Source: an uncultured delta proteobacterium | Lineage (GTDB): Bacteria; Myxococcota_A; Polyangia; Haliangiales; Haliangiaceae | Direction: 5' to 3' | Length of the DNA: 64,000 nucleotides | Assembly: GCA_963848295.1 (NCBI GenBank) | Contig: CAWKDB010000011.1 | Coordinates: 288,001 to 352,000 of the forward strand | Part shown: in pieces, positions 23,577-31,540 of the stretch | Position numbering within the stretch: position 1 is the stretch's first letter | How the letters are laid out: each line of letters opens with the position of its first letter | The notes under the pieces: generated by a model | What the model was told of the DNA's origin: nothing | The model's input: only the letters and a program-made list of their open reading frames with translations | The model's database searches: none | Translations under genes and position numbers: made by a program

Positions 23577-25223
23577 TCAGGGAGCTCTCAGGCCGCGCAC
23601 CTTGAAGATCTGCACCGCCTGCTCGCGACCCTTGACGTGGATCTCCCCGAACGCCTCGCCTTCGATCACGCCCTTCGCGAGCTCGTGAGTCGCTTCGGAG
23701 ATCAGGATGTCGGTACCGAGCTCCTTGGTCTTGGTCTCGAGCCGCGACGCGAGGTTCACCGCATCGCCGATCACCGTGTACTCCATGCGCTTCGCGCTGC
23801 CGATGTTGCCGGCGACGACCTCGCCGGTATGCAGCCCGATGCCGAACCGGAGCGTCGGTAGGCCGCGCGGCGCGAGTCGTTCGTTGAGCTTCGCGAGCGC
23901 GGCGCGCATCGCTACCGCGGCACGTGTCGCGTGGATCGCGTCGTCGCGGCGCGACACCGGCGCGCCGAACACCGCCATGATGTTGTCGCCGATGTACTTG
24001 TCGACCACGCCACCCTCGGCGATCACGCAGTCGACCATCTCGGTGAAGTACTCGTTGAGCAGGCCGACGATCTCCTGCGCGTTGCGCTTCTCGGACAGCG
24101 ACGTGAAGTCGCGCAGGTCGCAGAACAGGATCGTGACCTCGAGCGTCTTGCCGCCGAGCTCGACCTCGCCTGCGAGCAGGTGAGCGACGACCGCTTCGGT
24201 CATGTACTTGCCCATCGTGGTGCGCAACTTGTCGCGCTCCTGCAGGCCGACGACCATCGCGTTGAACCCCTCGGCGAGGTCCTCGAGCTCGTCGCCGGTC
24301 TTGACCACGTCGACCTTGACGTACTCTTGCTTCTCGAGCTTGCTCATCGCGTGGTTGACGCGGGACAGCGCGCGCGACATCCGCGATGCGAGTCGCCAGC
24401 CGAACGCGATCGAGAGCAACGTCGTCGCGCTGAGGATCGCGAGCGCGAACAGCGTGTGATTACGCACGATCGTCTTGATGTCGGTGACGTCGAGCGCGGC
24501 GGTAAACCGCAGCGTGGTGTCGCCCTTCGGCATGCGCGGCGGGATGAAGCTCGCGATCGCCCAGGTGTCACCGCGAGACGACACGATCTCACCCGCGGGG
24601 GTCGCCTCGGCGAGATCGTATTTCGGGAAGCTCTCGGTCGAATAGATCAGCTGCCCGCTCTGCTGTAGCGCGAGCTCGAGCCCGAGCTTCTGCTTCGCGT
24701 TCGTGAAGTACGCGGCGTCGAGCGGCAGACACACGAGCACCGAGCCCGCCGCGCCGACCGCGCGCACGACGCCGACCGCAGGTGGTGCCGCGGGATCGGC
24801 CTCGCACCCGTGTGGCATCACCGTCCGGTGATGGGGCGGCATCGCCGGCAGCGCGGGCTGCGGATGATCGCAACCGACCGATGCGACGACCGCCCCGGTG
24901 ACGTCGTAGAACACGATGTCGATGTCCGGATAGGCCTCGTGAAACGGCGCGGACAACCGGACCAGCGCCGCGGTGTCCTTCGCGAGCAGCGCCGGCTCGG
25001 TCGGGCCGAGCTCGGACAACGCACGCGAGGTCACGCGCAAGTCGAGCATGTCGTCGGCGAGCTCCTGGTCGAAGCCGTGGATCGCTTGCGGGACGCGATC
25101 ATCGACCTCGTCGACGAGCTGGCGGTGCATGAAGTACGACAGCACCGGGATCACGACGAGCGCCGCGATCGCCGAGAACGCGACCAGCGCGGTCAGCTTC
25201 CGGCGAACCGTGCCTAACAGCAC
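23577..25223 (-). CDS. Membrane class III adenylate/guanylate cyclase with HAMP domain
   Basis: Two TM helices; GDELEDLAEGFNAM; ILFCDLRDFT, DKYIGDNIMA, GNIGS..EYTVIGDAVNLASRLE. Confidence 0.92.
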   Translation of the reverse strand: MLLGTVRRKLTALVAFSAIAALVVIPVLSYFMHRQLVDEVDDRVPQAIHGFDQELADDMLDLRVTSRALSELGPTEPALLAKDTAALVRLSAPFHEAYPDIDIVFYDVTGAVVASVGCDHPQPALPAMPPHHRTVMPHGCEADPAAPPAVGVVRAVGAAGSVLVCLPLDAAYFTNAKQKLGLELALQQSGQLIYSTESFPKYDLAEATPAGEIVSSRGDTWAIASFIPPRMPKGDTTLRFTAALDVTDIKTIVRNHTLFALAILSATTLLSIAFGWRLASRMSRALSRVNHAMSKLEKQEYVKVDVVKTGDELEDLAEGFNAMVVGLQERDKLRTTMGKYMTEAVVAHLLAGEVELGGKTLEVTILFCDLRDFTSLSEKRNAQEIVGLLNEYFTEMVDCVIAEGGVVDKYIGDNIMAVFGAPVSRRDDAIHATRAAVAMRAALAKLNERLAPRGLPTLRFGIGLHTGEVVAGNIGSAKRMEYTVIGDAVNLASRLETKTKELGTDILISEATHELAKGVIEGEAFGEIHVKGREQAVQIFKVRGLRAP

Positions 25224-25226
25224 GCG

Positions 25227-26706
25227 CTAGATCTTCTTGTTGCGACGCTGCTGGAAACTGTACGGGCGATGCGACGATGTGCCCTTGTCGCCGCCGTCTC
25301 CGCCCTCGCCTTCGACCGGCGTCCCCGCGAGCGCCTCTTCGGCGCCGGGGCGGAACTTGATCGACGACAGCGGGCTCTCGGCGACGAGCACTTGGTTCTG
25401 CCGGCCGAGCACGGTCTCGGTGCCTTCGAGCTTGTCGATGTCGTCGAGGATGTCGTCGACCGTCGCGTAGCGCTCGCCGCGCGAGTCGCGGGTCATACGA
25501 TCGAAGATGTCGTCGATGCCGTGCGGCAGCGTCGGGTTGATCTGCGACGGCATCGGCGAGCGCCGGCCTGGCAGCTTGCGCGTCAACAGCTCGTAGAAGA
25601 TGATGCCGAGTCGCGTAGATATCGCCCTGCGGTCCCGCCGCCATCGGGTCGGAGTACAGCTCCGGCGCCATGTACGCGACGTTGCCCATCCCGACGTAGA
25701 TCTGGCGAATCACCGCGTGATCGCGCTCGACGATGCGGGTGAACCCGAAGTCCGAGACCTTGACGTTGCCGTACGCGTCGATCAGCAGCTGCTCCGGCTT
25801 CATGCCCCGGTGGTAGACGCGTTGCGCGTGCGCGGCCTTGAGCGCGTGCAGCGTCTGGAGCAGATACTTGAACGCGAGCTCGACCGGAATCTCCTCGGCG
25901 TCGTTGATCAACCGGCGCGCCGAGCCGTTCGGCGCGAGCTCGGTGACGAGGAACGGATACTCGACCCACAGGTTGACGTCGTGGATCGGCAGGATGTTCG
26001 GGTGCGCGAGGTTGCCCCACGCGCGCACGACATCGGTGAACCGGCGCACGATCTCGTTGCGCTGATCCTCGCTGAAGAACCCGAACAGATCGCGAATCTC
26101 TTTGAGCGCGACCTCGCGATTCAACGCGACCTGGCGGGCGCGATAGACCGTGCCCATGCCGCCCGAGCCGATCGTCGCGAGCTTCTCGTAGCGAACTTCG
26201 CCCGCGGCCATCTCGATGTCGCCGGCGACCACCGCCGACGGCCGTCCGCCCGACGTCGCGACCTTTGCGCCCGGATCTTTGCGCGGCAGGCCCTGGCTCA
26301 CCGAGCCTTCACGCGGATCGCGCGGCATCGCGCTCGACTGCACGCCGGACTGGCTGCCCATCGGCACCGCGGCGGCCGGCACGGCCATCGCCCGACTCTG
26401 GCGCAGCTTCTTGAAGTGACTGACCGCGCGCTCGGTAAACTCGGCGAGGTTACCGCCGTTCACGACGGTCTCGCCCTCGGGCGAGACCTCGAGGCTCTCG
26501 CTCGATCGGTCGTGGCGCAGGTATCCGGACTTCTCCAGGAACCCGACGTACTCCGCGAACGGGATCGAGACCGCGCCTTCACAGACGCGGCGGATATCGT
26601 CGTAGCGGTTTTGGCGGCCATAGCGCGCCTCGGCCATGACGTTCGCGAGGATGAAGCGAGCCTCTTCGCAGAGGACTTCCTTCGTGACCTTGGCACGGCC
26701 TTCCAT
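25227..26706 (-). CDS. Hanks-type Ser/Thr kinase-like protein with N-terminal wHTH-like domain (+1 frameshift near 25611)
   Basis: IGSGGMGTVY, VALKE, HPNIL, HRGMKPEQ, SDFG, YMAPE; C-lobe continues in frame 25227..25586. Confidence 0.85.
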
Positions 26707-26739
26707 ACGACGGATTGTAGGCATCCCAGCTCGGTATAA

Positions 26740-28014: not shown

Positions 28015-28530
28015 ATGAGACTGTATCCAGGGAAGGTCGATAGCATCGCCTCCGAGATCATCACTACGCTCACGACAGCCGGTGATATCGAGGTCAGCGA
28101 TGCGAACGAGGCACAGCTCGACATCGCCGCGGTGCTTAAAGAGTACATCCGCGTCGAAAAAGAACTGACCGAGCGGGCCAAAGACATCCTGGAGATCCGC
28201 GGGCTTCCCTACAGCCACCTCGGTCGCACCAAGCGTCAGCTCGCCGAGCAGAAGGAATTCGGCCTGGGCGAAGAGGGCCTGACCTGGATCGCGAGCCAGA
28301 TGCTCGAGGCGTTCATGTCATCGCGCCACGTCGACGAGGTGTTCGCCGACGACGCGATCTTGCGCCGGAAGATCAAGGATATCTGCAAGAAGCATATGCA
28401 GGTCGACGAGGCGATCGACCAAGAAGTGCGCGACCGGATCAAGAACCTCGAAGAAGGTACGCAAGCGTGGGACATCGAGTACGGCAAGGTGCTCGAGCAG
28501 GTCAAAGGCAAGCACGGAATCAAGGAGTAG
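28015..28530 (+). CDS. DUF507 family protein
   Basis: MRLYPGKV..; DEVFADD..LRRKI; EIDQEVR-like and EEGT..WDIEY C-terminus. Confidence 0.75.
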   Translation: MRLYPGKVDSIASEIITTLTTAGDIEVSDANEAQLDIAAVLKEYIRVEKELTERAKDILEIRGLPYSHLGRTKRQLAEQKEFGLGEEGLTWIASQMLEAFMSSRHVDEVFADDAILRRKIKDICKKHMQVDEAIDQEVRDRIKNLEEGTQAWDIEYGKVLEQVKGKHGIKE

Positions 28531-28591
28531 TAGCGGCGGTCACGCTAGAGCTGACGCTTGCTCTTACTCGCGACGGGAGCATCCTTGAAGG

Positions 28592-28993
28592 ATGGGGGCT
28601 CGCGCCATTTGCACCGACTGCATCACCGCCCCGGTGATGGTGTGCGGGCGCTGCCTGGTGACGCTGTGCGAACGTCACGCGCTGGCGCCGAACGAGCGTT
28701 GCGCCGCGTGCGAGCGCGACTGGGGCTGTGACGCATCGACGCGACGCGCGGCGAAGATGATCTTCGCGCCGCCGATCGCGCTGCTGTCGGGCGGGCTGCT
28801 GTTCGGGTTGTTGCTGCCGGTCTCGATCGGGGGAGCGATCGGCGCCGCGGTGATGTGCACGCTCGCGTGCGGTACGGGTGTCAGCGCGGGAGCCGGCGCG
28901 TGCCGGCTGTTCGATCGATCGGCGCGTTCGGTGTTCTTGCGCGAGCGCACGCTGGGCTTACCGCCCGCGCGGCTGTTGCCGAAGCACCGCTGA
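28592..28993 (+). CDS. Hypothetical protein with N-terminal Cys/His zinc-finger-like cluster and two TM helices
   Basis: CxxC..CxxC..CxxH..CxxC followed by hydrophobic segments. Confidence 0.6.
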   Translation: MGARAICTDCITAPVMVCGRCLVTLCERHALAPNERCAACERDWGCDASTRRAAKMIFAPPIALLSGGLLFGLLLPVSIGGAIGAAVMCTLACGTGVSAGAGACRLFDRSARSVFLRERTLGLPPARLLPKHR

Positions 28994-29079
28994 CCGTCAG
29001 TGGAATCGGATCTCCGGCCGCTTCGGCTTCGGCTCGTTTGAATCCGGCGAAGGGTGCCGGAATCATCTCCGGCGCGCGC

Positions 29080-29400
29080 TCACCGCGTGAGCCGGAACAG
29101 CATCGCGCGCACGCGATCGAGTGGCGCCTCGATCGCGGCGAAGTCGTCGGCGGTGATGTAGCCGCGCGCCTTGGCGATCATGAGCGCCGTCGACAGCTCG
29201 CGCGCGCTGCCGAAGGCGCGGCGGAACATGTCGGGCCGGTCGAGGCCGGCGCGTGCGCTCGCCTCGGCGATGTTGAGCGCGATGCTCTCGGCGGCGCGGC
29301 CGATCTCGTCGGCGAGCGACTTGCGCCGCGATCGGAGCTTCGGCTCGATCGGAGCGAGCTGTTCGAGGACGGTGAGCGACTGAGCGAGGACGTCGAGCAT
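29080..29400 (-). CDS. Four-helix-bundle protein (23S rRNA-IVP/TIGR02436, Avd-like fold), copy A
   Basis: LADEIGRAAESIALNIAEA..FRRAFGSARELSTALMIA..GYI. Confidence 0.88.
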   Translation of the reverse strand: MLDVLAQSLTVLEQLAPIEPKLRSRRKSLADEIGRAAESIALNIAEASARAGLDRPDMFRRAFGSARELSTALMIAKARGYITADDFAAIEAPLDRVRAMLFRLTR

Positions 29401-29430
29401 TGGCGTTGCCTTTCGTGGATGAGCGGCGCA

Positions 29431-29616
29431 CCGATCGCCGGGGCCGTCTCGCCCGTCGCGCCGCACTCGCGCCGGCGCCGTGACGAGCGCGGGCACAGAT
29501 CTCCGCACGCGTCGGTCGATCCAACTCTGCGGCGGCCGCTCGCAGGCGTCGGTGGTCTCGGCGCTCGGCGCGGTGCTGGCGCGAAGCGGCGCAGGGCGAC
29601 GGCCACGGCGAATCGG
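29431..29616 (-). ncRNA. Putative structured rod-like hairpin element upstream of four-helix-bundle gene A
   Basis: Self-complementary ends; about 150 nt of the core is homologous (in inverted orientation) to 29913..30107. Confidence 0.6.
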
Positions 29617-29638
29617 AAGCCGCGGGTGCGAAAGGTGG

Positions 29639-29883
29639 CGGCATCGGCATCGGCTGCGGCGACGGCTGCGGCTGCGGCGACGGCGGCGGCTGCGGCGACG
29701 GCACCGGCTTCGGCTGCGGCGACGGCGGCGGCTGCGGCGACGGCACCGGCTTCGGCTGCGGCTGCGGCGACGGCTACGGCTGCGGCGGCGGCTGCGGCTG
29801 CGGCGACGGCGACGGCGACGGCGGCGGCTGCGGCGACGGCGACGGCTGCGGCTTCGGCGACGGCGACGGCGACGGCGACGGCC
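29639..29883. repeat. Degenerate hexamer tandem tract (CGGCNN)n, about 40 units
   Basis: cggcat cggcat cggctg cggcga cggctg ... between the two hairpin elements. Confidence 0.9.
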
Positions 29884-29912
29884 TTGGAACACTCGACGCT
29901 CCTTCGCTCGCG

Positions 29913-30107
29913 CCGATGGGCGGAACGTCTCTCTCGCCCTGCGCCGCTTCGCGCTTGTCCCGCGCCGAGCGCCGAGTGCGCCGGCGTGTGAGAGCGACCG
30001 CCGCGGAGTTGATCGGCCGGCGAGTGCGGTGGTCAGCGCCCGCGCTCGTCACGGGACCCGCGCGAGTGCGGCGCGACGGGCGAGAGAGAGACGTTCCTAC
30101 CCATCGG
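29913..30107 (+). ncRNA. Putative structured rod-like hairpin element upstream of four-helix-bundle gene B
   Basis: CCGATGGG-C-GGAACGTCTCTCTCGCCC pairs with GGGCGAGAGAGAGACGTTCC-TA-CCCATCGG; inner stems GCGCCGC/GCGGCGC, GTCCCG/CGGGAC, CGAGCGC/GCGCTCG. Confidence 0.65.
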
Positions 30108-30129
30108 CCACTCACCTCGGAGGATCTTC

Positions 30130-30453
30130 ATGTCGTTCTACGCCCTCGACTTCGCCCTCGCCGTCCTGCACCAGCTCGCCCCGATCGAGGCCAAGGTCCG
30201 CCGCACGCGCAAGTCACTCGCCGACGAGATCGTCCGCGCCGGCGAGAGCGTCGCGCTCAACCTCAGCGAGGGCCGCATGCGTGTCGGGCTCGATCGCCCC
30301 GACTTCTATCGCCGCGCCGCCGGCAGCGCGAGCGAGCTCACGACCGCCCTCCTGATCGCGCGCGCCCGCGGCATCATCTCCGCCGAGGACTTCGCCGCGG
30401 TCGACGAGCCGCTCGACCACGTGCGCGCGATCCTCTGGCGGCTCACGCACTAG
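30130..30453 (+). CDS. Four-helix-bundle protein, copy B
   Basis: LADEIVRAGESVALNLSEG..YRRAAGSASELTTALLIA; GGAGG RBS; clear paralog of 29080..29400. Confidence 0.9.
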   Translation: MSFYALDFALAVLHQLAPIEAKVRRTRKSLADEIVRAGESVALNLSEGRMRVGLDRPDFYRRAAGSASELTTALLIARARGIISAEDFAAVDEPLDHVRAILWRLTH

Positions 30454-30633
30454 CGCTTGCGCCGGCCGCCGCGCCGGCGAAACCGATTTCGGCGCCCTTC
30501 GCGCAAGGCAACAACAACCCGGAGCGCCTGGAGCGCCGAGCACCCAAGCGGCGCGGGGTGTCAGCAAGAGAACGTCGCCTCGTTAGCAGCAGGAGCTGAT
30601 AGATGTGTCGCCGATGTCTCGAGCAGTTCGCGA

Positions 30634-30775
30634 CGGCGACGGCGACGGCGACGGTATCGGTATCGGCATCGGCATCGGCGTCGGCGACGGCGTCGGCTTC
30701 GGCGACGGCGTCGGCTTCGGCGACGGCGTCGGCTTCGGCGACGGCTCCGGCGACGGCTTCGGCGACGGCTTCCGG
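30634..30775. repeat. Second degenerate hexamer tract (CGGYNN)n, about 24 units
   Basis: cggcga cggcga ... cggtat cggcat cggcgt cggctt; same strand orientation as the 29639 tract. Confidence 0.9.
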
Positions 30776-31540
30776 TCACGCGACGGGCTTGATGCCCATC
30801 GCCTCGAGGATCTCGCCGACCACCATCTCGCCGAGGCGTTGGATCTGCTGCTCGCCCTCGGCGACCGAGGCCGCGGCCGGATCGCCGGCGTACGCGAGCT
30901 CCATGCCCATCGCCTGAAACGTCGTGACGCCGGCCCCGAGCTGATCGCTCAAGCTGATCGGCACCGGCGCCAGCACGCCGCGCATCGAGTCGTTCACGAA
31001 CTCGGGAGCCGCGGCCATCATGATCGAGGTCTCGTAGCGCCCGGCGTGACACTGGCCGCTCTTGAATTCGGCAGATAGCGTACGCGCCCAGCGCTTCGTC
31101 AACGGGCACGCGACGATGACCTTGCTGCCGCGACCCTCGAGCACCGCGCGCACTGCGGCGTCGTGCGCTGGCTCGAGGTGGTTGTTGACGAGGCACACGT
31201 GGCGAAGCCCGCTCGCGAGCAGGCCGTCGCACACCGCCGCGAGGTACGCGGTCAACACCGTCGCAGGAATCGACACCGCGCCGGCAAACCCGGTCGCGCA
31301 CTCGGTGACGCCGTAGCTGACCGCGGGCGCGATCACGCCGACCATCGTGCCGCGCTTCTCCAGCAACTCGGCCGCTCGCAGGCAAGCCGCGGCCGAGATC
31401 ACGACGTCGGTGCCGAGCCCCAGGTGCGGGCCGTGCGGCTCCGTCGATCCGATCGGCACGAGCGCGATGACGCCGCGCTTGCCGCCTACCAAGTCGGTCA
31501 GGCTCGCGGTGGTGTGGCGAGCCAGGAACTTTTCGGTCAC
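30776..31540 (-). CDS. Creatininase family amidohydrolase
   Basis: [32 protein letters not shown]. Confidence 0.9.

Follow-up and report, generated by a model that had tools for sequence, protein, structure and literature searches.

The locus described here is one of ten near-identical twin cassettes in the genome of a soil myxobacterium (G000), and we give an even chance to the reading that it is a selfish element with a leader predicted to lock the ribosome binding site and a protein that recognizes its own bulged stem. It was analyzed within a stretch of 64,000 nt (the window, to which all coordinates without a contig name refer). A cassette unit consists of a hexamer array, a rod hairpin, a gene and a small 3' hairpin, and the window contains two diverged units arranged back to back (Table 1). 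An earlier note, made from the letters of the window, had proposed a small selfish module without a reverse transcriptase (RT) or transposase of its own; the multiple copies, empty sites and relics reported below support this.

Table 1. Features of the twin cassette and its flanking genes in the window.
Feature	Position	Strand	Basis
Left host gene, encodes a Cys-rich protein of 133 aa without a Pfam match, converges on the cassette; flank, outside the element	28592..28993	+	
Short left hexamer run; other copies carry longer arrays at the same position	29015..29036	+	
3' trailer of A, small GC-rich hairpins, kept among copies	29037..29079	-	
Gene A, four-helix-bundle protein (PF05635/TIGR02436), 106 aa	29080..29400	-	ORF list, profile matches
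Shine-Dalgarno-like motif of A, predicted pairing partner 29630-29635 at the distal end of the leader	29409..29414	-	sequence, arm alignment, P=0.99
Rod hairpin A, with covarying stems, a conserved C.T mismatch motif, bulges at fixed places and a variable apical segment of ~70 nt	29431..29616	-	
Central (CGGNNN)n hexamer array; units and length vary from copy to copy	29639..29884	+	
Rod hairpin B, homologue of hairpin A with another outer stem	29913..30107	+	
Shine-Dalgarno-like motif of B, predicted long-range pairing with ~29899-29902	30119..30124	+	sequence, P=0.99
Gene B, four-helix-bundle protein, 107 aa; AlphaFold pLDDT 94.8; fold as 2GSC, 2RLD and Avd	30130..30453	+	
3' trailer of B, with a small hairpin at 30460-30479 followed by semi-conserved sequence (almost) confined to cassette copies	30454..30632	+	
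Right (CGGNNN)n array, same direction as the central array, abuts the stop codon of the creatininase-family gene	30634..30771	+	
Right host gene, creatininase family, converges on the cassette; flank, outside the element	30776..31540	-	

Elsewhere in the window, a Ser/Thr-kinase-like ORF (25099-26724, minus strand) turns Arg/Ala-rich past about residue 370 and is overlapped by another ORF (25227-25586), a possible frameshift.

The encoded proteins

The 23S-IVP family of four-helix-bundle proteins is widespread and structures of members have been solved; to our knowledge, no function has been assigned to it except in the case of DGR Avd. Both cassette proteins exceed the cut-offs of the Pfam profile PF05635 (A, 53.9 and B, 45.1 bits; cut-off 33.8) and of TIGR02436 (50.8 and 45.6; cut-off 24), and they are 63-67% identical to each other. 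The AlphaFold model of B forms four helices and in structure comparison best matches 2GSC and 2RLD, followed by Avd (TM 0.79-0.84), to which sequence identity is 11%; a sequence-profile search retrieves 2GSC and 2RLD only. The description of the locus as two divergent paralogous genes of IVP/Avd-like fold therefore stands. With 17 and 15 K+R residues against 14 D+E in each, A and B are barely basic and near neutral, which weakens the analogy to Avd. PMC10053308 mentions no more than the homology of Avd and PF05635.

Fold and covariation of the leader hairpins

Each gene is preceded by a leader that folds more stably than its shuffled versions, as the earlier note had expected: leader A (29421-29626, minus strand) reaches an MFE of -132.5 (z -5.06) and leader B (29903-30130, plus strand) one of -143.6 (z -6.07), and 0 of 200 shuffles were as stable in either case. 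The closing and inner stems of the two leaders differ in sequence and still pair, and arm-to-arm alignments agree with the pairs originally quoted. Of the claim that each leader is one long hairpin, the stems hold; the apical segment of about 70 nt, taken for a conserved continuation of the rod, does not, as RNAalifold assigns it no pairs and no consistent covarying helix was found within it. At its base, the stem extends outward beyond the limits first given and is predicted to pair the Shine-Dalgarno (SD) motif of each gene (P=0.99 in both). No Rfam family fits: a search of Rfam 15 returned no family at gathering score and only mir-598 (29.3 bits against a cut-off of 69), located on the right hexamer array.

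Covariation was assessed in leaders carrying the core motif, 46 in number, of which 33 were less than 85% identical and 32 were aligned (the G010 leader was dropped); as the leaders were picked by this motif, invariant core columns carry no weight. In these 32 non-redundant leaders, 91.9% of the cells of the stated structure pair and both partners have changed in 13 of 30 pairs, a level reached by 0 of 500 shuffles, while slid controls were 24-59% paired. Since such a count is inflated by kinship, changes were recounted on a tree built from the loop columns only. The pairs 44-151, 45-150 and 46-149 then change together at 0.75-0.88, whereas the mean of the null, taken over 1359 column pairs, is 0.18 (at most 0.0007 of the null pairs score as high); the other five testable pairs are weaker, with 0.02-0.6 of the null pairs scoring as high.

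Several features of the hairpin are fixed, namely a C.T mismatch, an adjacent C.A or T-A position, a one-base bulge in the 5' arm and extra bases in the 3' arm, among them a 2-nt bulge. Bulged bases number 568 versus 215, in line with the extra bases of the 3' arm. The span enclosed by the mismatch was measured in the 50 leaders, out of 68, in which the motif was found, and is 82-88 nt long in 41 of them, 51-59 nt in seven and 39-41 nt in two; in another family (G355), the same stem closes a loop of 6-8 nt. A strong inverted repeat is missing in 8 of the 68 leaders. Helical phasing of the loop lengths (about 40, 51 and 84 nt) was considered and dropped, given the form with a 6-8-nt loop and a conservation autocorrelation of at most 0.2. 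A covariance model finds matches in 8 of 141 genomes of the class, all within the family of the host, a count that does not give the range of the hairpin family because the model misses short-loop forms.

Among the copies in G000, the inner arms diverge by 0-0.022 and the loops by 0.10-0.11, compared with 0.16 at four-fold sites and 0.004-0.016 at second codon positions of the genes. As judged from these values, the protein copies are under strong purifying selection. Comparison of the leaders indicates that the pairing and the places of mismatch and bulges are kept while the paired letters turn over. The proposal that selection acts on the structure is thus upheld by the covariation together with inner arms that are 0-2% divergent against 16% at four-fold sites. 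A purely mechanical origin of the covariation, by template switching that copies one arm of the inverted repeat onto the other without any selection for shape, appears very improbable. It would account for outer stems that are exchanged as a whole for near-perfect complements and contain hardly any wobble, but such copy-correction would erase mismatches and bulges, and these are fixed while neighboring pairs change. Moreover, the arms diverge far less than the four-fold sites, and the stem motif persists around the short loop of the G355 family.

Copies of the cassette in the genome

Searches with tblastn and blastn located the A/B twin at ten sites in G000, one of them with a truncated A, and the leaders of these copies are 90-100% identical. 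Beyond the ten twins, the genome holds one diverged twin, one single unit and one deletion relic. A leader profile (nhmmer, E < 1e-6) gives 24 matches in G000, all of them at cassette loci with a gene or relic adjoining. The copies are centered on (CGGNNN)n arrays and mostly flanked by them too, with units that differ per copy. Within 700 bp of family genes lie 27 of the 59 hexamer arrays of the genome; the remaining arrays that were inspected are mostly coding low-complexity linkers. In nine of ten two-sided cases, the arrays to the left and right share one direction (the exception is without a hairpin), and the unit therefore differs from the IVS type, in which a stem encloses the ORF.

According to rough ORF calls, the host genes at the flanks are unrelated from site to site and often converge on the cassette, and no conserved gene neighborhood was found across the cassette sites. 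The two four-helix-bundle ORFs are the only ones that the copies have in common, with no IS-type transposase or recombinase, and no mobilizing enzyme was found beside any cassette locus examined. The substitution spectrum in loops and genes is mixed. Incompatible site pairs are more frequent among distant sites (477 of 750 in A, 442 of 796 in B) than among near ones (18 of 57 and 17 of 74), a pattern that points to recombination between copies or to assembly mixing.

Two further repeat types were observed in G000. Approximately 5.6 tandem branched-hairpin units of 188-194 nt, 98-99% identical, were found directly downstream of the single cassette (C10:1111591-1112644, L317) and at no other genomic position. 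The genome also carries a second, canonical four-helix-bundle family, whose MITE-like unit has both terminal inverted repeats and hexamer runs in inverted orientation (C2:271k, C2:797k, C2:436k, C10:2647k, C10:3467k, C10:4056k and C10:3175k), and several of its copies are interrupted by group II intron-like sequence.

Empty sites, relics and rearrangements in relatives

Related genomes provide the empty sites that the earlier note had pointed to as a check. At the loci of 29 relatives that correspond to the window site, no match to gene B was found within 1.5 kb downstream of the creatininase gene, and in seven relatives the two host genes are only 27-89 bp apart (an eighth case rests on the unpublished genome G010 and was left out). 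The closest relative, G104, retains a relic of A that is 179 bp long and marked by several internal deletions. Four further sites were compared with G104: the first is empty, with abutting stop codons; the second is also empty, with overlapping convergent stop codons, and the insert of G000 is bounded there by a 6-bp direct repeat; the third has two other genes next to a deleted A unit; and at the fourth the flanks are joined differently. One empty site contains no hexamer array at all. The 6-bp target-site-like repeat, seen at one site relative to G104, is not evident at the other junctions viewed.

The flanks also suggest an exchange. In G104, the left flank of copy E2 is continuous with the right flank of E1, and in G062 and G068 E1-left is continuous with E2-right, from which it follows that G000 carries a reciprocal swap at two copies (C11:441k and C2:610k; L307 and L308). 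The swap is either real ectopic recombination or an assembly swap, and both the mosaicism and the flank swap could in part be assembly artifacts at repeats. An 'array-only' site in G104 was rejected as a deletion scar, being the coding low-complexity tail of a host gene. Two loci in relatives were recorded in passing: in G104 (C187:4400-6700; L323, L326), aspartyl-protease-like and lipoprotein-like ORFs, named by eye, replace the B unit between hexamer runs, and in G102 (C91:1733-1895; L364) a leader hairpin with a shortened 3' outer arm has no four-helix-bundle gene downstream and is a probable relic.

The close subfamily is present in 26 of 91 genomes of the genus in a patchy manner, and twins of two diverged paralogues, divergent or convergent, recur in G084, G127 and G073. 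To judge by record titles, homologous loci belong mostly to Kofleriaceae/Haliangiales. A metagenome scan with the core motif gave 120 loci, none with a gene nearby, and two weak leader-profile matches; consequently, these are treated as chance matches. Three DNA contig sets contained no usable joint.

These distributions bear on a quite unlikely alternative, a host-useful family that is conditionally translated, for example under stress or phage attack, and passively amplified by recombination between hexamer arrays, with the hairpin serving as a regulatory leader only. Such a family would fit the strong purifying selection among copies already 16% apart at four-fold sites, the arrays of equal direction on both sides (9/10) and the proximity of 27/59 arrays to these genes. 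It is harder to reconcile with the patchy presence, the element's loss and decay in G104, expansions that arose independently in separate genomes, the absence of a conserved gene neighborhood across sites and the empty site devoid of any array.

RNA or DNA as the functional form

Two lines of evidence lead in different directions. An SD-like motif paired more than 100 nt upstream (P>0.5) was predicted for 39 of the 57 scorable non-redundant leaders, out of 68, compared with 4 of 24 control genes; the long-range lock is missing in the other 18 of the 57. In the more distant genomes G364 and G374, unrelated plain perfect hairpins likewise cover the SD. In these predicted folds, the SD lock points to mRNA as the functional form. 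A consensus site was found neither for a single-strand promoter nor for an internal sigma-70 promoter. In IS200, an inverted repeat sequesters the SD and silences the transposase (PMC4513863), and PMC4990558 states that the native context of the Coxiella IVS does not yield its protein.

The composition of the stems points to DNA, or to function of both strands, insofar as G-U wobble is scarce. The stems of 60 leaders contain 113 GT and 139 AC mismatches among 4141 Watson-Crick pairs, a total that includes L003, an array-derived false hairpin rich in GT. In the set of 32 leaders, GT occurs 24 times versus 43 for AC, 24 of the latter at a single fixed position, and tRNA stems of the same genome have 57 GT and 0 AC. 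Of the two strands, the antisense one has the lower fold in 19 of 32 leaders when computed as RNA and in 25 of 32 as DNA.

The hairpin might accordingly be read as folded single-stranded DNA or a cruciform that provides an enzyme acting in trans with a shape-coded site for recombination or cleavage, much as attC or REPINs do, with the SD lock being secondary; we regard this as rather unlikely. It would explain the nearly pure Watson-Crick stems in which GT is no commoner than AC, the lower antisense DNA folds (25/32), and the extrahelical bases and mismatch at fixed places. On the other side, the attC R-box consensus is not evident by eye, no integrase-like ORF was noticed among the listed ORFs of the window, and in leaders of very different kinds the stem terminates on or just at the SD or start codon. 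The apical length classes (41/50 at 82-88 nt) recall the spacer classes of REPINs described in PMC3337134, but, unlike REPINs, the hairpin is almost never found without a gene. Nine Y1/RAYT-like HUH genes in G000 also speak for it, and a Y1_Tnp match is present in 88 of 91 genomes; against this, none was found in G084 (93% complete) or G102 (98% complete), both of which are rich in the element (24 and 13 hits).

The nine HUH genes are located at C10:3806926, C2:330154, C10:3657655, C2:1374309, C10:1439500, C10:4550601, C10:261800, C10:3445968 and C10:3040575, and six of them have a common upstream element of about 130 nt.

Proposed mode of action and implications

In the reading we favor, that of a selfish element with a locked leader and a stem-recognizing protein, the stem is predicted to bury the SD, and often the start codon, in host read-through transcripts, leaving the gene nearly silent as in IS200. 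By analogy to Avd, an oligomer of the protein would hold on to bases that flip out of the stem and would work in cis; this would account for purifying selection on the copies. The enzyme that makes new copies would be provided in trans, and copies would then recombine with each other, as suggested by mosaic alleles and the flank swap, or decay by deletion.

A bolder reading, which we put forward tentatively and hold to be doubtful, is that the Avd-fold protein and the shape-coded rod hairpin constitute a new minimal mobile element, a nucleoprotein that acts in cis and recruits copying machinery. It is similarly speculative that this machinery would be a host polymerase, a recombinase or a borrowed reverse transcriptase, which would copy the element to new sites and over old copies. 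If true, this new minimal element would for the first time assign a function to the very large family of 23S-IVP proteins and offer a mechanism by which such genes spread. The family is here tied to a covarying nucleic-acid structure, the invariant mismatch and bulges of which define exact test mutations, so that the old question of what the family binds and how its genes spread becomes a direct binding or reporter experiment. Empty sites and relics suggest movement without an encoded transposase, and the copies may act as rearrangement points in myxobacterial genomes.

Comparison with known systems

In the literature searched, which included few subscription papers, no earlier description of the leader hairpin was found. 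One system close to the cassette is the ORF-bearing 23S rRNA intervening sequence. The Coxiella S23p IVS (PMC4990558) shares with the cassette the PF05635 family with 2GSC and 2RLD as best matches, a selfish appearance, a structured RNA context, short tandem repeats near the start of the ORF, and an ORF that is poorly expressed natively. The 23S IVS, however, lies in rRNA, whereas the cassette is intergenic between protein genes with dispersed copies, and no rRNA match was found within 28500-31000. The IVS encloses its ORF in the loop of an excised stem, while the ORF of the cassette begins past the 3' arm, downstream of the hairpin. According to PMC4990558, the SD of the Coxiella IVS is cut off by RNase III and its ORF is decaying, in contrast to a predicted paired SD and an ORF under apparent purifying selection in the cassette.

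DGR Avd, which acts with a stem-loop of the Sp RNA, has the same fold (TM 0.79-0.84), and the cassette hairpin keeps bulges at fixed places; 10.1101/2023.10.23.563531 describes a stem-loop whose flipped-out bases are inserted by Avd between its protomers. The stem in that system is 11 bp long, compared with a cassette hairpin of about 190 nt, and the proteins share 11% identity. Avd is described as positively charged, unlike the barely basic A and B. Neither an RT nor a TR/VR pair was found at the cassette locus, and the four RVT_1 matches of the genome, three full and group II intron-like and one weak, are all far from cassette loci. DGR-type mutagenesis of the loop was rejected, as variation among copies is not adenine-focused. 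A retron (msDNA-like) reading was likewise discarded on the grounds that the three full RTs are group II intron-like and no retron-like RT was recovered, although in a genome that is 85% complete this is not proof of absence. RTs are present in 5 of 5 element-bearing relatives and are uninformative.

In attC sites, a single ORF lies next to covarying stems whose extrahelical bases are fixed, and the cassette likewise combines a covarying stem of this kind with a single ORF. According to PMC3337134, REPINs resemble the cassette hairpins as intergenic, multi-copy imperfect hairpins with spacer length classes. Both differ from the cassette in that its hairpin is always tied to, and upstream of, one gene family, and no cognate RAYT or integrase was found. 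The tnpA leader of IS200 is alike in its inverted repeat that sequesters the SD and in small hairpins at the end of the element (PMC4513863); IS200, however, encodes an HUH transposase, which the cassette protein is not, and the cassette has a far longer stem, fixed bulges and flanking hexamer arrays. By the tests listed, the element is not a 23S IVS, DGR, REPIN or IS. Instead, by analogy to these systems, it would work like a hybrid, with an IVS-type cargo behind an IS200-type locked leader.
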